NCBI RefSeq assembly: GCF_988243305.1
Contig: NZ_OZ547136.1
DNA: 64,000 nucleotides
Strand: one strand, 5' to 3'
The notes beneath the pieces are model-generated. The model did no database searches. It had not been told where the DNA came from and worked only from the letters and a program-made list of their open reading frames with translations. Of the stretch, positions 10,147-19,404 are shown one piece after another; positions within the stretch are counted from its first letter, which is position 1; every line of letters starts with the position of its first letter. Position numbers and translations under genes: made by a program.

Positions 10147-10418
10147 GTATTCGTATTGAAATTGGCGAACGTTATGTCGTTACCAGTGACAGCTTTCAGT
10201 TTATTCTCCACGAGAAAAAGAGAGCGGAAAGCGGTAAAAACGCCGGTCAGGAATGGCTGGCGGTGGTTGGTTATTACCCGAAATTAGGCCAGCTCGTTTC
10301 CGGCCTGATGCATCACGATATTCTGACCGGAAGCGCAAAATCTTTTGCTGATTTAAACGCGCAGGTTGAGCAACTCAGCAAGCGTTGTTCAGAGGCTTTT
10401 GGCTCATATGGCCGTTAA
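10143..10418 (+). CDS. Hypothetical early protein
   Basis: 91-aa ORF overlapping gene A start. Confidence 0.45.
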   Translation: MSIRIEIGERYVVTSDSFQFILHEKKRAESGKNAGQEWLAVVGYYPKLGQLVSGLMHHDILTGSAKSFADLNAQVEQLSKRCSEAFGSYGR

Positions 10419-12684
10419 AGCCTCCGGGCGTTTTGTCCCTCCGTCAGCATTTACCGCAGGCACCGGTAAGGCGTTTACCGGTGCTTATGCATGGAACGCG
10501 CCACGCGAGGATGTCGGGCGCGAAAGACCTCTTACACGTGACGAGATGCGTCAGGTGCAAGGTGTTTTATCCACGATTAACCGCCTGCCTTACTTTTTGC
10601 GCTCGCTGTTTACTTCACGCTATGACTACATCCGGCGCAATAAAAGCCCGGTGCACGGGTTTTATTTCCTCACATCTACTTTTCAGCGTCGTTTATGGCC
10701 GCGCATTGAGCGTGTGAATCAGCGCCATGAAATGAACACCGACGCGTCGTTGCTGTTTCTGGCAGAGCGTGACCACTATGCGCGCCTGCCGGGAATGAAT
10801 GACAAGGAGCTGAAAAAGTTTGCCGCCCGTATCTCATCGCAGCTTTTCATGATGTATGAGGAACTCTGCGATGCATGGGTTGATGCGCATGGTGAAAAAG
10901 AATCGCTGTTTACGGATGAGGCGCAGGCTCACCTGTATGGTCATGTTGCTGGCGCTGCACGTGCTTTCAATATTTCCCCGCTCTACTGGAAAAAATACCG
11001 TAAAGGACAGATGACCACGAGGCAGGCATATTCTGCCATTGCCCGCCTGTTTAACGATGAGTGGTGGATTCATCAGCTTAAAGGCCAGCGTATGCGCTGG
11101 CATGAGGCGTTACTGATAGCTGTCGGGGAGGTCAATAAAGACCGTTCTCCTTATGCCAGTAAACACGCCATTCGTGATGTGCGTGCGCGCCGCCAGGCAA
11201 ATCTGGAATTTCTTAAATCGTGTGACCTTGAAAACAGGGAAACCGGCGAGCGCATCGACCTTATCAGTAAGGTGATGGGCAGTATTTCTAATCCTGAAAT
11301 TCGCCGGATGGAGCTGATGAACACCATTGCCGGTATTGAGCGTTACGCCGCCGCAGAGGGTGATGTGGGGATGTTTATCACGCTGACCGCGCCGTCAAAG
11401 TATCACCCGACACGTCAGGTCGGAAAAGGCGAAAGTAAAACCGTTCAGCTTAATCACGGCTGGAACGATGAGGCATTTAATCCAAAGGATGCGCAGCGTT
11501 ATCTCTGCCGTATCTGGAGCCTGATGCGCACGGCATTCAAGGATAATGATTTACAGGTCTACGGTTTGCGAGTCGTCGAGCCACACCACGACGGAACGCC
11601 GCACTGGCATATGATGCTTTTTTGTCATCCACGCCAGCGTAACCAGATTATCGAAATCATGCGTCGCTATGCGCTCAAAGAGGATGGCGACGAAAGAGGA
11701 GCCGCGCGAAACCGTTTTCAGGCAAAACACCTTAACCGGGGCGGTGCTGCGGGATATATCGCGAAATACATTTCAAAAAACATCGACGGCTATGCACTGG
11801 ATGGTCAGCTCGATAACGACACCGGCAGGCCGCTGAAAGACACTGCAGCGGCTGTTACCGCATGGGCGTCAACGTGGCGCATTCCGCAATTTAAAACGGT
11901 TGGCCTGCCGACAATGGGGGCTTACCGTGAACTACGCAAATTGCCTCGCGGCGTCAGCATTGCTGATGAGTTTGACGAGCGCGTCGAGGCTGCACGCGCC
12001 GCCGCAGACGGTGGTGATTTTGCGCTGTATATCAGCGCGCAGGGCGGGGCAAATGTCCCGCGCGATTGTCAGACTGTCAGGGTCGCCCGTAGTCTGTCGG
12101 ATGACGTTAACGAGTACGAGGAAGAAGTCGAGAGAGTGGTCGGCATTTACGCGCCGCATCTCGGCGCGCGTCATATTCATATCACCAGAACGACGGACTG
12201 GCGCATTGTGCCGAAAGTTCCGGTCGTTGAGCCTTTGACTTTAAAAAGCGGCATCGCCGCGCCTCGGAGTCCTGTCAATAACTGTGGAAAGCTCACCGGT
12301 GGTGATACTTCGTTACCGGCTCCCACACCTTCTGAGCACGCCGCAGCAGTGCTTAATCTGGTTGATGACGATGTTATCGAATGGAATGACCCGGAGGTCG
12401 TGAGGGCGCTCAGGGGCGCATTAAAACACGACCGGAGAACGCCAAACCGTCAGCAAAGAAACGGAAGCCCGTTAAAACCGCATGAAATTGCACCATCGGC
12501 CAGACTGACCCGGTCGGAACGATTGCAAATTACCCGTATCCGCGTTGATCTCGCTCAGAACGGTATCAGGCCGCAACGATGGGAGCTTGAGGCGCTGGCG
12601 CGTGGCGCGACCGTAAATTATGACGGGAAACCTTTCACTTATCAGGTCGCTGATGATTGGCCGGGATTTTTGTTACCCATTTGA
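10408..12684 (+). CDS. P2 gpA-type rolling-circle replication initiator endonuclease
   Basis: ~758 aa from ATG 10408 (ORF-track frame opens 10366); HxH and tyrosine-containing motifs (PHHDGTPHWHMMLF, AGYIAKYISKN). Confidence 0.85.
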   Translation: MAVKASGRFVPPSAFTAGTGKAFTGAYAWNAPREDVGRERPLTRDEMRQVQGVLSTINRLPYFLRSLFTSRYDYIRRNKSPVHGFYFLTSTFQRRLWPRIERVNQRHEMNTDASLLFLAERDHYARLPGMNDKELKKFAARISSQLFMMYEELCDAWVDAHGEKESLFTDEAQAHLYGHVAGAARAFNISPLYWKKYRKGQMTTRQAYSAIARLFNDEWWIHQLKGQRMRWHEALLIAVGEVNKDRSPYASKHAIRDVRARRQANLEFLKSCDLENRETGERIDLISKVMGSISNPEIRRMELMNTIAGIERYAAAEGDVGMFITLTAPSKYHPTRQVGKGESKTVQLNHGWNDEAFNPKDAQRYLCRIWSLMRTAFKDNDLQVYGLRVVEPHHDGTPHWHMMLFCHPRQRNQIIEIMRRYALKEDGDERGAARNRFQAKHLNRGGAAGYIAKYISKNIDGYALDGQLDNDTGRPLKDTAAAVTAWASTWRIPQFKTVGLPTMGAYRELRKLPRGVSIADEFDERVEAARAAADGGDFALYISAQGGANVPRDCQTVRVARSLSDDVNEYEEEVERVVGIYAPHLGARHIHITRTTDWRIVPKVPVVEPLTLKSGIAAPRSPVNNCGKLTGGDTSLPAPTPSEHAAAVLNLVDDDVIEWNDPEVVRALRGALKHDRRTPNRQQRNGSPLKPHEIAPSARLTRSERLQITRIRVDLAQNGIRPQRWELEALARGATVNYDGKPFTYQVADDWPGFLLPI

Positions 12685-12942
12685 GTAAAAATACAGCGTG
12701 ATTTTATATGTCTTTGAATGGATTATGCGAAACACCTCTAAGGTAGATGAGGAGCAATAGCGTGTTGAATCAGAAGGCTAAATTGTATTGAATCGTTAGC
12801 ATGTAATTGAAGGCAGCTATTTGATTCGAGTCATAAAAGAGCATCTATTTCGGTTAATAAAACCATTGCGAGTGACTTTATGTCGAAGCATAATTCATCT
12901 CGAGCGAAGTCTTGCTAGTCTTTCATCGGATTGATGACGGGC

Positions 12943-12975
12943 GCAAAAAAACCACCCTGGCAGGTGGTTTTTTTG
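12943..12975. terminator. Bidirectional rho-independent terminator
   Basis: A-run, accacc-ctggca-ggtggt hairpin, T-run. Confidence 0.5.
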
Positions 12976-12986
12976 TTTGAAGCATA

Positions 12987-13100
12987 CTAAAGAAAAATAC
13001 TTACATGGATATTACTGACGTTTACTGACAAACCACTCGGACTACCATATGGATAGCCAAAGAGGGCCAGAACGAGAATGCAGTAATAGCACTTCTTCAT
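12987..13100 (-). CDS. Hypothetical 37-aa hydrophobic peptide (MKKCYYCILVLALFGYPYGSPSGLSVNVSNIHVSIFL)
   Basis: ATG with AGGAGG 5-10 nt upstream; terminator immediately downstream on the same strand. Confidence 0.3.
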   Translation of the reverse strand: MKKCYYCILVLALFGYPYGSPSGLSVNVSNIHVSIFL

Positions 13101-13822
13101 ATCGCCTCCTGTAAGCAGAGGGCAATTTCCGCCGATATATGCGCTTCTAAGGCGGAGTGACTATTGAGCGAAGTCTTGCCCTGAAATAATGCTCTGTTTA
13201 AACGCAAAGTGATCTGGCATATCACCGAACAGAGGACCTGAACAACACAACATATAGTATGTCGTTGTTTCTGGTTGCATTTTATGTTGTGTAATACTGG
13301 TTTTGCATCAAGGATGTTTGAGCTTTTTTTGATATAGCTCAAAGTAAAAAGCAGAGACTACGGATGATAAGGTCTTGAAAGCAATGTAAATTTTTTAAAG
13401 TTGTGAGTGGCTAGAAATGCACAGTTTCAATATGGCGGATTTAAACAAGTAATTAAAAATAGCGACACAAATTCCAATAAAATCATTAAGTTGCGTTTTC
13501 TGTGGAAACTTCGGTGACTCTGAAATTTTCTTTTAGTATCGCTGAGGTTTAACAACTCGCTGCGCAAGTAGTTAGTGTTTTTTTTAACTCAATATTCTGA
13601 TTTATAAGGTTTTTTATAAATCGTGGGCTGGTTGCGCATATTCATCTCGTGTTATCAGCAAAGATAAGCTCTATATGCAGAACTGAATGCATATATGATG
13701 TCGAAAATGTTATGGGAAAACGTGGATTAGTGTTATAGTAATGGCTGAAAAACAGCCTTGACATAAAATAACAACTGTGATATGGCTGTGCATACTTAAC
13801 TTTTTTAACGTAGGAGGCAACC

Positions 13823-14308
13823 ATGAGCTATGCAGCTAAAAAACTGCTTGACCGCTATTGGGATCGCCGACTACCTGTCGATCCGTTTAAGCTTGCTAAA
13901 GCGTGGGGTGCTCGTGTTGAAGCACTTGAGGAATCGGCTTATAACAACGATGGGTTAAGCGGTCTGGCTGTCATCAAAAAGGGTGTCCATAGGATTTATT
14001 TTGATTCTAGTGAACATTCTAATCGTCAACGTTTTACTGTTGCACACGAGTTAGGTCATCATGTGCTGGGGCATACCCAGGACGGAGAGTACCATCGGGA
14101 TAATGTCGGGAATTATTCAACAGGTGCTCGTGATTACCGTGAGGTTGAAGCAAACAAGTTTGCTGCTGAGTTGTTAATGCCTGAGTCTGCTATACGTCAA
14201 TTGGTATCCAGAGAAGGTATTGATAGCACTTTGAGATTAGCAAGCATCTTTAATGTATCAGAAGCCGCTATGCATTGGCGCTTAAAGAGCTTAGGAATGG
14301 CTTATTAA
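13823..14308 (+). CDS. ImmA/IrrE-family HEXXH zinc metallopeptidase-like protein (161 aa)
   Basis: HELGHHVLGH plus downstream E (FAAELLMPE); AGGAGG SD; promoter-like TTGACA at 13761; AT-rich cargo. Confidence 0.75.
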   Translation: MSYAAKKLLDRYWDRRLPVDPFKLAKAWGARVEALEESAYNNDGLSGLAVIKKGVHRIYFDSSEHSNRQRFTVAHELGHHVLGHTQDGEYHRDNVGNYSTGARDYREVEANKFAAELLMPESAIRQLVSREGIDSTLRLASIFNVSEAAMHWRLKSLGMAY

Positions 14309-14374
14309 TTAGCCTTTAACTTTTAACCTGTTTAAAATCACCTTTACGTTTGTACATGTAAGGGTGATTTTTTT

Positions 14375-14974
14375 ATGGCTGATATTGATTTATCTGGACA
14401 GTCCCCAGAGCAAGGAACCACTCCTAAGGGCGATTTAGATCCTGATATCCTTATAAGGCGAGATAGACGGGATGGTATAGAGCGTAGAAGTATGCGATTA
14501 GTGCTCTCTGCCGTTGTGCTTTGTTTTGCTTGTACATTTCTATGGCAGGGGCTTAACTTTGCTTTGGCTGTTGGAAATGGCTTGCTGGAAGCGAAAAGCA
14601 GTATTGCCGCAGCGATAACACAAAAAGTAGATACACAAACTTGTGTTTCAGCAGAAAAATGTTCTGCTTTATCTTCGGATCCGAAGATGGCTGATGAGAG
14701 GATAACACCATCTTCAGACACTAATAAAGTTAGAAAATCTATTTCTGGTTTATCCACCGATTGGTTATCGGCCAGTTCTCTAATAGCTATTGTTGCATTC
14801 ATCCTTGGTGTGGGTTTAACTTTGCTTTTGACTCTTCTTAAATCAGCATTTCAACACCCGACAGATAAAGACTTTAGAACAAAGTCGACATCTAATACTA
14901 TTGAGTTGGCCACGCCAATCAGTGAATTAATAATTGGTGTTCTGAATATAATTAAAGACAAACTATCTAAGTAA
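14375..14974 (+). CDS. Hypothetical membrane protein, two predicted TM helices (199 aa)
   Basis: Hydrophobic segments ~res 40-66 and 130-155; start codon sits in T-run of upstream terminator hairpin. Confidence 0.6.
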   Translation: MADIDLSGQSPEQGTTPKGDLDPDILIRRDRRDGIERRSMRLVLSAVVLCFACTFLWQGLNFALAVGNGLLEAKSSIAAAITQKVDTQTCVSAEKCSALSSDPKMADERITPSSDTNKVRKSISGLSTDWLSASSLIAIVAFILGVGLTLLLTLLKSAFQHPTDKDFRTKSTSNTIELATPISELIIGVLNIIKDKLSK

Positions 14975-15056
14975 AGCATTAGTTGTGATTTTTTATTGGT
15001 TTTAGTGATAATACATCTCCAGTACTTATTGTTACTGGAGAGTATTTTTAGTCGTT

Positions 15057-15998
15057 TTATATTTTTAATGTTAGTGAATGATATTCACGAGAGTTCACGT
15101 TCGATGTGATGTAATCGGGGGCGTTAACACCAAGAATCGCAACGAGTAATCGGCAAATTAAAGCCTGCATTTGTTGTAATATGTCATCTCCATATTGATA
15201 ATTGTTAATAGTGGTAAAGCCAAGTGGTTGACCATGAAACATAGCTTCATGAAAGTTTTCATTGCGGATGTTTGTAATGTTTTTTTTACCTGTAACCCAT
15301 GATGGTCGTGGTATTCCATAAGTTTTGCAGATCCACTTCAAGCGCCTGGAGTGATTTAGAGTCTTTTCTGTACACTTGTTCTTTTCTGCCCATGTTAAAG
15401 CAAAGCAACTATCCAGTGCCATATAAAGATACTGGAATTTTTCGAAGCTAAGGTATTGTGGGTTTTGGGATAAAAATAGTGCATGCACTATTGCTGCTAT
15501 ATTTATTGGTGCGTGTTTGGTTTTTGTCTCGCTAGACATGTATTTGAGTGCTAATTCTATAACCTCTTTTTCAGAGCACTTGACCAGAATAAAGTCAGTT
15601 AATTTGCTGGGTTTTATTGGGGTTGCGTCTAAAAAACCGGCATCAGTAGTTGTTAATCTTATCCCTTTGAAAAAAGACAGACACCACACAGCAAAATTGA
15701 GAGTTTCTAGTGAAGATGTATTTTTTAATTTTAGTGAGTGTGTTTTGGGTAAGCCAAATACTCGTTGGCTAAAAGGCATTGTGGATATGCCTCCATTGAG
15801 GTTATATACTTCTTGGTTTCCTGGGTATATCCAACCGTTAATAACATTTCTGTGATTGTTTATAAGATTTGTTTTTTCCGCTAGACCGGGTAAAGTAAGT
15901 AAAGAAAAATCATCAGTTTCAACGTTAACTTCTACTGGATAGTATCCAAACTCAGCTTCAATATCATTGGATTGCTGTTCGTCAACTTTACCTTGCAT
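15057..15998 (-). CDS. Hypothetical protein, 313 aa, unknown function (candidate phage-exclusion effector)
   Basis: Long ORF in AT-rich DNA (sampled lines roughly 35-40% GC vs >50% flanks), GGAG SD, convergent with membrane-protein gene; R-x4-H at ~245-250. Confidence 0.65.
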   Translation of the reverse strand: MQGKVDEQQSNDIEAEFGYYPVEVNVETDDFSLLTLPGLAEKTNLINNHRNVINGWIYPGNQEVYNLNGGISTMPFSQRVFGLPKTHSLKLKNTSSLETLNFAVWCLSFFKGIRLTTTDAGFLDATPIKPSKLTDFILVKCSEKEVIELALKYMSSETKTKHAPINIAAIVHALFLSQNPQYLSFEKFQYLYMALDSCFALTWAEKNKCTEKTLNHSRRLKWICKTYGIPRPSWVTGKKNITNIRNENFHEAMFHGQPLGFTTINNYQYGDDILQQMQALICRLLVAILGVNAPDYITSNVNSREYHSLTLKI

Positions 15999-16424: not shown

Positions 16425-17459
16425 TCAGCCGTTGTCGGTGTCCAGTGAGTAGTTTTTAAAGCGGATGACCTCCTGACCGAGCCAGCCGTTTATCTCGCGG
16501 ATCCTGTCCTGTAACGGGATAAGCTCATTGCGGACAAAGACCTTTGCCACTTTCTCAATATCACCCAGCGACCCGACGTTCTCCGGCTTGCCGCCCATCA
16601 ACTGAAAAGGGATGCGGTGCGCGTCCAGCAGGTCTGCGGCGCTGGCTTTTTTGATATTAAAAAAATCGTCCTTCGTTGCCACTTCACTGAGCGGGATAAT
16701 TTTAATGCCGTCGGCTTTCCCTTGCGGGGCATAGAGAAACAGATTTTTAAAGTTGTTGCGGCCTTTCGACTTCACCATGTTTTCGCGGAGCATTTCGATA
16801 TCGTTGCGATCCTGCACGGCATCAGTGACGTACATGATGTATCCGGCATGTGCGCCGTTTTCGTAATACTTGCGGCGGAACAGCGTGGCCGACTCATTCA
16901 GCCAGGCAGAGTTAAGGGCGCTGAGATATTCCGGCAGGCCATACAGCTCCTGATTAATATCCGGCTCCAGCAGGTGAAACACGGAGCCGGGCGCGAAAGG
17001 TGTCGGCTCATGGAAGGACGGCACCCACCAGTAAACATCCTCTTCCACGCCACGGCGGGTATATTTTGCCGGTGAGGTTTCCAGTCTGATGACCTTACCG
17101 GTGGTGCTGTAACGCTTTTCCAGAAACGCATTACCGAACACCAGAAAATCCAGCACAAAGCGGCTGAAATCCTGCTGGGAAAGCCACGGGTGCGGAATAA
17201 ACGTTGAAGCCAGAATATTACGTTTGACGTAAATCGGTGAGCTGTGATGTACGGCAGCACGCAGGCTTTTTGCCAGACCGGTAAAGCTGACCGGTGGCTC
17301 ATACCATCTGCCGTTACTGATGCACTCGACGTAATCCAGAATGTCACGGCGGTCGAGTACCGGCACCGGTTCACCAAAGGTGAATGCCTCCATTTTCGGG
17401 GCGCTGGCGGTCATTTTTTTTGCCGCAGGTTGCGGTGTTTTCCCTTTTTTCTTGCTCAT
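16425..17459 (-). CDS. Portal protein (P2 gpQ)
   Basis: 344 aa, P2 order and size. Confidence 0.9.
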   Translation of the reverse strand: MSKKKGKTPQPAAKKMTASAPKMEAFTFGEPVPVLDRRDILDYVECISNGRWYEPPVSFTGLAKSLRAAVHHSSPIYVKRNILASTFIPHPWLSQQDFSRFVLDFLVFGNAFLEKRYSTTGKVIRLETSPAKYTRRGVEEDVYWWVPSFHEPTPFAPGSVFHLLEPDINQELYGLPEYLSALNSAWLNESATLFRRKYYENGAHAGYIMYVTDAVQDRNDIEMLRENMVKSKGRNNFKNLFLYAPQGKADGIKIIPLSEVATKDDFFNIKKASAADLLDAHRIPFQLMGGKPENVGSLGDIEKVAKVFVRNELIPLQDRIREINGWLGQEVIRFKNYSLDTDNG

Positions 17460-19231
17460 TAGTAAAACTCCAGAATGGTGGATGTCAGCGGGGTGCTGAT
17501 ACCGGCGGTGAGTGGCTCATTTAACAGGGCGTGCATGGTCGCCCAGGCGAGATCGGCGTGGCTGGCTTCCTCGCTGCGGCTGGCCTCATAGGTGGCGCTG
17601 CGTCCGCTGCTGGTCATGGTCTTGCGGATAGCCATAAACGAGCTGGTGATGTCGGTGGCGCTGACGTCATATTCCAGACAGCCACGGCGAATAACGTCTT
17701 TTGCCTTGAGCACCATTGCGGTTTTCATTTCCGGCGTGTAGCGGATATCGCGTGCGGCGGGATAGAACGAGCGAACGAGCTGGAACACGCCGACACCGAG
17801 GCCGGTGGCATCAATTCCGATGTATTCGACGTTGTATTTTTCGGTGAGTTTGCGGATGGATTCAGCCTGGGTGGCAAAGTCCATGCCTTTCCACTGGTGA
17901 CGCTCAAGTATTCTGAATTTGCCACCGGCCACCACCGGCGGTGCCAGCACCACGCATCCGGCACTGTCGCCACGGTGTGACGGGTCGTAACCAATCCAGA
18001 CCGGGCGGGAGCCGAACGGATTCGCGGCAAACGGCGCATAGTCTTCCCATTCTTCCAGCGTGTCGACCATGCAGCGTTGCAGCTCCTCGAACGGGAACAC
18101 CGACGCCTTGTCGTCAACAAATTCACACATGAACAGGTTTTTAAAATCGTCGGCGCTGTTTTCGCGTTTAAGCTGCTCAATGTCGAACAGCGTGCAGCCA
18201 CCTTTCAGGGCGTCCTCAATGGTGACAATCTGCCGCCACTGACCGTCCGCACAGAGAAGCCCACCGGCAAGAGCGTTATGACTGACGTCGATTTCCACGC
18301 GTTCGGCGGCGCTGGCGCGTCCCCGGTTGAACAGTTCACCCGACCAGAACGGGTAGGCGTCGTGCGCCAGCGTGGACGGGGTGGAGAAATAGGTCGAGCG
18401 CAGGTGACTCTGTGAGGCCATACCTGATGCCACCTTACGCAGTACCTGAAAATTCGGTATCCAGAAAATCTCGTCGACGTACAGGTCGCCGTTATGGCTC
18501 TGCGCGGTGTTGGAGTTGGTGCCGAGAAAAATCAGTTTTGCGCCGTTATTGCCCAGGACAATTGGGTCACCGGTCAGGTCAACGTCAACCAGCCGGGCAA
18601 AGGCGATGATGTATTCGCGGAACACATACGCCTGCGTTTTACTGGCCGACAGAAAAATCTGGTTATGACCGGTTTTCAGGGCGCGCAGCAGCGCCTCGCG
18701 GGAAAAATAAAACGTCGCGCCAATCTGGCGGGATTTCAGGATATCGCGGATGCGGTGCTCAAGCCCTGCGCGATACCAGTGCAACTGATATTCGAAAGAC
18801 TGCTCAAAGAAAATCTGCTCCAGCTTTTCGATGGCCTCGTCACTGAAAAAATTCTTTTTCGGTTTGCGACGCCCGCCTTTGTTGCGGTTAGCGACGTTCG
18901 GATTAAAGTCTGCCTCGTTGCCGGTCTGACTGTAACGGTTGACCCGTGCCAGTCGTTCAATCTGGCGTCCGAGCAGGTCAATTTCCTTGAAGTCACCGCC
19001 GGTTTTCTGCGGTTTGATGATGAGCTGGGTCAGCCGCGCTTCCAGACTCATTTCGACACGGCTGATGGGGGCAACGCTGTCCCAGCCGTCGCGCTGTTTC
19101 CAGCTCTGCACCGTCGGGCGTTTCATCTGCAACATGGCGGCAATCTGCGGCACGGAAAATCCCTGCCAGTACAGCAGCGCCGCCTGACGACGCGGGTCGT
19201 GTAAAAGAGTGGTGTCTGTGGTGATGGTCAT
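17459..19231 (-). CDS. Terminase large subunit (P2 gpP)
   Basis: 590 aa from ATG at 19231 (MTITTDTT...); ORF-track frame extends to 19261. Confidence 0.9.
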   Translation of the reverse strand: MTITTDTTLLHDPRRQAALLYWQGFSVPQIAAMLQMKRPTVQSWKQRDGWDSVAPISRVEMSLEARLTQLIIKPQKTGGDFKEIDLLGRQIERLARVNRYSQTGNEADFNPNVANRNKGGRRKPKKNFFSDEAIEKLEQIFFEQSFEYQLHWYRAGLEHRIRDILKSRQIGATFYFSREALLRALKTGHNQIFLSASKTQAYVFREYIIAFARLVDVDLTGDPIVLGNNGAKLIFLGTNSNTAQSHNGDLYVDEIFWIPNFQVLRKVASGMASQSHLRSTYFSTPSTLAHDAYPFWSGELFNRGRASAAERVEIDVSHNALAGGLLCADGQWRQIVTIEDALKGGCTLFDIEQLKRENSADDFKNLFMCEFVDDKASVFPFEELQRCMVDTLEEWEDYAPFAANPFGSRPVWIGYDPSHRGDSAGCVVLAPPVVAGGKFRILERHQWKGMDFATQAESIRKLTEKYNVEYIGIDATGLGVGVFQLVRSFYPAARDIRYTPEMKTAMVLKAKDVIRRGCLEYDVSATDITSSFMAIRKTMTSSGRSATYEASRSEEASHADLAWATMHALLNEPLTAGISTPLTSTILEFY

Positions 19232-19404
19232 GAATACCTCGCCGTGATGAATACACGGCAAGGCTACTGAGTCGCGCCCCGCGATTCGCTAAGGTGCTGT
19301 TGTGTCAGTGATAAGCCATCCGGGACTGATGGCGGAGGATGCGCATCGTCGGGAAACTGATGCCGACATGTGACTCCTCTAATCACTATTCAGGACTCCT
19401 GACA

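Follow-up and report, generated by a model that had tools for sequence, protein, structure and literature searches.

A prophage peptidase cassette with a predicted terminator hairpin that includes the ribosome-binding site of the membrane-protein gene

A gene for a minimal M78 (ImmA/IrrE-type) metallopeptidase and a gene for a membrane protein with two hydrophobic helices lie head to tail on the plus strand of a 64,000-nucleotide (nt) stretch of contig NZ_OZ547136.1 (RefSeq assembly GCF_988243305.1), the whole of which is referred to here as the window. The spacer between the two genes contains a hairpin followed by a run of T residues that ends directly in the start codon of the membrane-protein gene. 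The initial annotation had placed the T-run against the ATG at 14375 and the sole Shine-Dalgarno (SD)-like element within the stem, and both points were confirmed by sequence and folding. The parts of the arrangement are as follows.

13823-14308, plus strand: gene for the minimal M78 (ImmA/IrrE-type) metallopeptidase, 161 amino acids, with a Pfam PF06114 match at 3.8e-21 and HExxH kept
14306-14308, plus strand: stop codon TAA of the peptidase gene, read from the sequence
14334-14349, plus strand: 5' arm of the hairpin, AAAAUCACCUUUACGU, from sequence and folding; its AUCACC part mimics the 16S rRNA anti-SD
14350-14355, plus strand: loop UUGUAC, from folding
14356-14371, plus strand: 3' arm of the hairpin, AUGUAAGGGUGAUUUU, from folding; it holds the sole SD-like element, AGGGUGAU
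14368-14374, plus strand: T7 run, read from the sequence, abutting the ATG at 14375; putative U-tract and SD-AUG spacer
14375-14974, plus strand: gene for the membrane protein, 199 amino acids, two hydrophobic helices, matched by phrog_8096 only, with a conserved N-terminal DLSG and C-terminal helix

The element is likely an intercistronic intrinsic (Rho-independent) terminator that is fused to the ribosome-binding site of the membrane-protein gene. RNA polymerase arriving from the peptidase promoter would mostly halt in the U-tract, one base 5' of the AUG, and the product would be a peptidase-only mRNA ending in a stable 3' hairpin. In RNA that reads through, the hairpin would refold, lengthened by A-U pairs, and bury the SD sequence. 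The 3' arm would double as the SD sequence of the membrane-protein gene and the U-tract as the spacer between SD and AUG. The latter role would explain why the T-run always abuts the ATG. A bare SD trap needs no U-run and a U-rich ribosome landing site needs no stem, and for this reason the combination points to an intrinsic terminator. Synthesis of the membrane protein would thus be freed from that of the strongly translated peptidase and would be far lower, supplied either by rare read-through together with hairpin breathing or by a weak spacer promoter. The peptidase is predicted to be abundant and the membrane protein scarce. We infer termination and translational occlusion in vivo, as well as their efficiency, from the structure and its conservation.

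Folding predictions were consistent with a stable, strand-specific RNA structure. The stem comprises 16 bp, including 4 G-C pairs, and begins 26 nt past the TAA. The 41-nt element folded at -18.0 kcal/mol compared to -4.2 ± 1.9 kcal/mol for shuffled sequences (z = -7.25), with 0 of 200 shuffles as good, and the 101-nt context of the hairpin folded at -25.1 kcal/mol (z = -4.4). The core stem, calculated without the A/U-tract pairs, had an energy of -14.1 kcal/mol. Owing to two G·U pairs, the plus-strand RNA of the window was more stable than that of the minus strand (-18.4 versus -12.5 kcal/mol). No Rfam covariance model matched positions 14300-14380, even at E ≤ 1.

The sole purine-rich, anti-SD-complementary stretch 5' of the ATG is AGGGUGAU (14361-14368), and it lies entirely within the 3' arm. 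Its pairing with the 3' end of 16S rRNA was calculated at -10.2 kcal/mol, and its opening in read-through RNA at a cost of approximately 16 (16.2) kcal/mol. The corresponding values among enteric loci were -9 to -10 kcal/mol for SD/anti-SD pairing and 12 to 18 kcal/mol for SD opening, and the opening cost across all stem versions was 9 to 18 kcal/mol. This weaker, buried SD sequence contrasts with the strong one of the peptidase gene.

13812-13817, plus strand: AGGAGG, SD sequence of the peptidase gene; GTAGGAGGC(A/T)ACC-ATG hardly varies across all enterobacterial loci

The N terminus MA(D/E)IDLSG is kept across the alignment of the membrane-protein family, and the ATG at 14375 is therefore the correct start. 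The sequence 5' of this ATG is noncoding, since T-run lengths of 4 to 8 shift the frame between loci; a leader peptide or an in-frame upstream start in the 3' arm was rejected on the same ground. Start calls for the membrane protein conflict among databases (L002 3918-4397, P0006, P0021, and P0016-P0019): in NC_070905 it is called from an internal Met and is 159 amino acids long, some entries take a GTG or ATG within the hairpin 3' arm as the start ("MVIFFMA"), and a further group is cut short, with 80% coverage. Lack of a free SD sequence at the true start is the probable cause of these discordant calls.

The arrangement recurs well beyond the window. The membrane protein had 53 detectable homologues, which begin with the conserved MA/MS..DLSG, and the cassette was found in P2-like phages, a P1-like element, plasmids, islands, Vibrio, and Acinetobacter. 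An M78 peptidase of approximately 161 amino acids lay immediately upstream of the membrane-protein gene in every recovered locus; the other surroundings were unrelated. Every gammaproteobacterial locus except Acinetobacter L027 had a hairpin, then four to eight T, then ATG, with a gap of 0 to 1 nt between the T-run and the ATG. Stem sequences fell in about five versions, and the 3' arm was the G-rich, SD-like arm in every version.

Enterobacterial stem version: AATCACC../..GGTGATT
Vibrio-type stem: GCC(C/T)TC / GAGGGC, with T5-7 and then ATG directly
L152 stem: GGCCAC / GTGGCT, with T5-7 and then ATG directly
L160 stem: CCCTCTG / CAGAGGG, with T5-7 and then ATG directly
L017, L252, and L253 stem: GCCACC / GGTGGC, with T5-7 and then ATG directly

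Enterobacterial spacers had the order AAATCACCAT(C/T)AT, loop, AT(G/A)ATGGTGATTTTTTT, ATG, or the variant of it found in the window. When the 16-pair helix was scored on an alignment of 14 enterobacterial sequences, 87.5% of cells were paired and 4 of the 16 pairs were altered on both sides. The covariation score was 0.122, compared to a shuffle mean of 0.064 (a score of 0.122 was reached by 0 of 500 shuffles) and to 0.025 to 0.065 for slid controls. G·U pairs in the window, L002, and L153 favored folding of the plus strand over the minus strand. Hairpin z-scores ranged from -4.4 to -7.3 for the window and all other versions (-4.4 to -5.9 for stems of other lineages), and core stems without A/U-tract pairs ranged from -7.7 to -15.4 kcal/mol across all versions. 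The L160 and L026 versions were listed as terminators by the terminator scan. Searches of viral contigs with a distant alignment and of metagenome contigs added L251-L253 and no further stem version, and a profile search of genome contigs with the membrane-protein alignment yielded no confirmed relatives. By these comparisons of sequence and predicted structure, the hairpin, the T-run, and the occluded SD are a real, selected element. In L160 (1845-1915), the membrane-protein gene is split by a frameshift beside a poly-A run (GATAAAAAAGAAAAAATAAC), which is either a sequencing error or the mark of an inactivated copy.

Several observations weigh against this reading. The 30-nt spacer of Acinetobacter L027 lacks a hairpin, the T-run of L021 consists of four T only, and the 3' arm of L152 (GUGGCU) is a poor SD sequence (-2.9 kcal/mol). 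The window hairpin itself was skipped by the terminator scan, because its rule counts four A-U pairs into the stem and leaves too few tail T. The enterobacterial stem is A/U rich with a loop of 6 to 10 nt and may be a partial terminator only. Lastly, a gene placed behind both a terminator and a buried SD sequence might hardly be expressed, and a variant with an internal promoter was taken seriously for this reason. The candidate promoters of the two genes, both read from the sequence, are given below.

13758-13763 and 13778-13786, plus strand: candidate promoter P1 of the peptidase gene, TTGACA, 17-nt spacer, and extended -10 TGaTATGGC
14310-14315 and 14333-14338, plus strand: candidate weak internal promoter P2, TAGCCT, 17-nt spacer, and TAAAAT

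If the spacer holds a weak sigma-70 promoter, the membrane-protein gene would be an insulated, independent unit expressed on its own schedule. Such a promoter would refine the reading of a fused terminator, and its presence is somewhat less likely than not. The predicted start of the internal promoter lies near 14344-14346, inside the 5' arm; transcripts starting there would lack the full arm and would be unterminated with the SD sequence free, and the hairpin would stop upstream transcripts only. With a start 6 to 8 nt past the -10 hexamer, the calculated SD opening cost dropped from 9 to 18 kcal/mol to 1.4 to 6.3 kcal/mol (≤4 kcal/mol for the enterobacterial versions). In all versions, the first G/C of the 5' arm was preceded within 4 nt by a -10-like hexamer (0 to 4 nt as measured, and 3 nt by inspection in the L017 type). 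These hexamers were TAAAAT, TAGAAT, TATAAA, TATCCT, TACATT, and TACAAT, mostly of the form TAnnnT, with TATAAA in group-2 loci. Each had a partner hexamer 16 to 18 nt upstream (TAGCCT-17-TAAAAT in the window, TTTAAC-16-TAGAAT, TTCCC(T/A)-17-TATAAA, TTGC(T/G)A-17-TATCCT, CTGACT-17-TAGAAT, TTGCAA-17-TACATT, and ATGGCA-18-TACAAT), although the -35 hexamers are weak, at 2 to 4 of 6 matches (3 of 6 in the window), and L252 and L253 have no convincing -35. In group-2 loci, CTTCCCT and TATAAAT blocks were kept around a 17-nt spacer of variable sequence, and the site was the sole promoter-like call of the scan in approximately 200 nt in both L017 and L152 (9 of 12). Shuffled sequences gave a match so placed at 0.035 to 0.15 per sequence; the product over four independent versions was approximately 4e-5, a post hoc figure that is suggestive only, since the promoter criteria were set after the data had been seen. 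The A-rich tract 5' of a terminator hairpin moreover tends to resemble a -10 hexamer, which the shuffle test ignores. The possible spacer promoter had been overlooked in the initial annotation; if the membrane-protein gene has its own promoter, the hairpin would be an insulator and not a switch. The most elaborate form of this idea is doubtful: that one hairpin is at once terminator, trap of the ribosome-binding site, and promoter-proximal leader with a dedicated promoter firing from inside the 5' arm, that the two genes are expressed independently, that the cassette is a new protease-controlled membrane effector (toxin-antitoxin-like or anti-phage), and that the insulator replaced ancestral coupling in gammaproteobacteria.

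It is unlikely that the hairpin is instead a conditional switch, opened or read through during phage infection so that a toxic abortive-infection effector is released. The cassette does sit in the P2 region between A and cos/Q, a known hotspot of anti-phage systems (Rousset et al.; PMC9122126), its peptidase domain is nearest that of CapP, a peptidase activated by single-stranded DNA (PMC13228613), and the membrane protein could be an effector, its toxicity and abortive-infection role being suppositions. However, no conserved alternative pairing was found by inspection: the outer helix of the window and a CCUUUA/UAAGGG pairing are both absent from the other versions, and an antiterminator or alternative helix was rejected on this ground. 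There was likewise no leader open reading frame (ORF) and no Rfam match, and any regulation could equally be posttranslational, via the peptidase. An RNA thermometer of the fourU/ROSE type, melting at 30 to 42°C, was also rejected: at 42°C the hairpin had an energy of -16.1 kcal/mol, and even at 70°C it did not unfold in silico. The proposal of the initial annotation that expression is attenuated or conditional therefore held in its first half, with attenuation predicted by the conservation, the compensatory changes, the strong peptidase AGGAGG, and the weak, buried SD sequence; for conditional expression, no signal in cis was found. Its remark that such layouts are often seen for abortive-infection effectors was overstated, the documented precedent being the terminator before type III toxins (PMC3401426).

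A simpler explanation, in which the hairpin merely ends and stabilizes the peptidase mRNA and its overlap with the start codon is a by-product of compaction without regulatory effect, is improbable. Compactness is typical of phage cargo cassettes, and the pattern AATCACCAT-N6-24-ATGGTGATTTT occurred in more than 120 unrelated genomes among the genome-contig matches listed, mostly of low G+C content and with no new cassette loci, which apparently places the sequence in ordinary terminator space. However, the gap of 0 to 1 nt and the SD-like 3' arm are kept in all stem versions, and a terminator at that position must physically lower downstream expression. A dispersed repeat, such as a repetitive extragenic palindromic (REP) element or a transposon end, was rejected as a candidate, as a similar pattern in viral contigs matched the cassette only. 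It is very improbable that the inverted repeat works as DNA and not as RNA, as an operator bound by a dimeric repressor of the kind that usually accompanies ImmA/IrrE peptidases. In most loci the repeat is close to a perfect palindrome, and it shares sequence with the candidate promoter and start site. However, TCACC and GGTGA lie 22 to 27 nt apart, depending on the locus, which argues against a rigid protein operator, and the wobble pairs would not match in a DNA palindrome or on the minus strand; a protein operator was rejected on these two grounds. Furthermore, the arms covary rather than stay conserved, the T-run is always 3' of the repeat, and the cassette encodes no helix-turn-helix protein.

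For P1, TTGACA and TG(n)TA(A/T)GGC were kept in P2-type loci; the promoter was not listed by the consensus scan because its -10 matches at just 3 of 6 positions. P1 is bracketed by an inverted repeat, ACAGCC...GGCTGT, with a small hairpin, GGCTGaaaaaCAGCC, before it (13743-13789), and these features were also kept in P2-type loci; the repeat may be an operator for some regulator. Group-2 loci (L018, L020-L025) carry CTTCCC(T/A) approximately 10 nt past the peptidase stop and exactly 17 nt upstream of TATAAAT, a poor match to a -35 hexamer, and P2-type loci carry CCCTTTAAC at the place of CTTCCC(T/A).

More distant relatives of the cassette bear on the origin of the terminator-bearing spacer. 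The peptidase profile found 80 viral loci, and 41 more distant viral loci (35 to 50% peptidase identity) were examined, 38 of which had a downstream ORF. The next gene in 36 of these 38 was predicted to encode a membrane protein of 120 to 230 amino acids with one to three hydrophobic segments, mostly two. Its start codon lay between -14 and +13 nt relative to the stop of the peptidase gene, in most cases within an ATGA or TAATG overlap, and no hairpin was present. Five of the distant membrane proteins scored on the membrane-protein profile (L160 at 5.7e-26 and four others at 5e-6 to 3e-4), and many had, by eye, an N-terminal DL(S/A)G and a C-terminal amphipathic helix. Because stop and start overlap without a hairpin in the distant relatives, translational coupling would be ancestral and the spacer with the terminator derived. 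As read from this comparison, the gammaproteobacterial lineage has swapped coupling for a hairpin-bearing spacer of approximately 55 to 75 nt. That one lineage exchanged a stop/start overlap for insulation by a terminator suggests that function depends on the ratio of the two proteins. Pairs of an M78 peptidase and a protein with two transmembrane segments were widespread in viral contigs (L161-L203), and no name was found for the family.

The two proteins were compared with described families. The peptidase carries the RefSeq name "ImmA/IrrE family metallo-endopeptidase," and HExxH is invariant in its alignment. It matched the PADLOC model capP at 1e-30 over positions 8-153 of the 242-position profile, in the peptidase domain only, and its matches to the capP, RmrA, PDC-M69B, and PD-Lambda-2_B models all ran through the M78 domain only. 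Similarly, its match to the CapP and IrrE chains of known structure, 291 to 301 residues long, was confined to their peptidase region (residues ~74-160). The membrane protein had no match in Pfam, PADLOC, or NCBIfam, neither cassette protein matched a helix-turn-helix family (Pfam, PADLOC, PHROG, and NCBIfam), and the pair fits none of the PADLOC families matched by the peptidase. An AlphaFold2 model of the membrane protein was a helical hairpin with a mean predicted local distance difference test score (pLDDT) of 65. By the positive-inside rule, both tails of this protein would lie in the cytoplasm, where the peptidase could reach them, and the loop carrying two conserved Cys would face the periplasm. 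The RefSeq accessions of the cassette appeared in no paper found, Rousset et al. 2022 and a 2026 hotspot preprint made no mention of an M78 or ImmA gene in P2/P4 hotspots, and a COG2856 literature search returned nothing relevant. The cassette is uncharacterized and matches no named defense or toxin-antitoxin system.

The window is a P2-like prophage, and the pair of genes sits in its variable region, from gene A to cos/Q. The surrounding features are as follows.

10366-12684, plus strand: replication gene A of the P2-like prophage
15016-15041, both strands: hairpin between the convergent membrane-protein and 313-amino-acid genes, from the terminator-like scan
15057-15998, minus strand: gene for a 313-amino-acid protein, convergent to the membrane-protein gene; phrog_5937 (a PHROG family of unknown function)
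16425-17459, minus strand: portal gene Q of the P2-like prophage
17459-19261, minus strand: terminase gene P of the P2-like prophage

The 313-amino-acid protein had no Pfam, PADLOC, or NCBIfam match, and its gene was rejected as a member of the cassette, being missing from all other peptidase/membrane-protein loci. The gene is a distinct piece of hotspot cargo, possibly with a defense role of its own, and because of its absence at the other loci the cassette is a two-gene unit of peptidase and membrane protein. The hairpin at 15016-15041 is the probable end of the cassette transcript. A 1.5-kb stretch of the locus was present at ≥99% identity in 46 of 5,426 complete Escherichia coli genomes and in some form in 49; it was also found in one Salmonella phage record and was rare in phage and plasmid collections (3 records each). 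A 37-amino-acid hydrophobic ORF (MKKCYYCILVLALFGYPYGSPSGLSVNVSNIHVSIFL) was observed at 12987-13100 on the minus strand, with AGGAGG 4 nt upstream, inside a 1.1-kb stretch (12685-13822) without RefSeq gene annotation. It adjoins an A7/T7-flanked hairpin at ~12945-12974, and a subthreshold Rfam RNAI match was seen at 12943-13053 on the minus strand (E = 0.028).

Intra-operon attenuating terminators set gene ratios in rpsU-dnaG-rpoD and rplL-rpoB, where, as predicted here, a partial terminator between codirectional genes lowers distal expression. In those operons the terminator is separate from the next ribosome-binding site, whereas here the 3' arm would be the SD sequence and the U-tract the spacer. 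The burial of an SD sequence in outside transcripts resembles the "fold-back inhibition" of externally initiated transcripts that was reportedly described for IS10 by Davis, Simons, and Kleckner in 1985. The left end of IS200 combines a terminator against impinging transcription with an SD-sequestering stem-loop, and its own weak promoter yields productive mRNA (PMC4513863). As in both insertion sequences, where a weak promoter of the element itself gives the productive mRNA, outside transcripts are predicted here to be terminated and/or to have their SD sequence buried; unlike in them, the internal promoter is only predicted and the protected gene is not a transposase. IS200 moreover uses two separate hairpins, whereas a single one would serve both roles here.

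In its proteins, the cassette recalls CapP-CapH, ImmA-ImmR, and IrrE-DdrO, in which the upstream gene is likewise of the M78 peptidase fold family with HExxH. Those pairs act by repressor cleavage and not by an RNA hairpin, and unlike CapP/CapH and IrrE/DdrO (PMC13228613), the 161-amino-acid peptidase has no helix-turn-helix substrate gene and no GAF or helix-turn-helix domains, and its partner is a protein with two transmembrane segments. The nearest precedent in design is found in type III toxin-antitoxin and abortive-infection loci (ToxIN, CptIN, and TenpIN), in which 1 to 50 bp separate the components and the balance of antitoxin to toxin is set by a palindromic terminator ahead of the toxin gene (PMC3401426). 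The likeness lies in a short palindromic terminator between the upstream component and the downstream gene. Unlike in type III loci, the upstream component is a protein-coding peptidase gene and not a set of tandem antitoxic RNA repeats (no tandem repeats were found in 12690-15100), and the downstream protein, a toxin by supposition only, has two transmembrane segments and is no endoribonuclease of the ToxN/AbiQ type. The terminator here would also differ from that of type III loci in holding the SD sequence. The principle would thus be a known one in an unusually compact layout, in which the terminator would set the ratio of two genes and the buried SD sequence would silence read-through.

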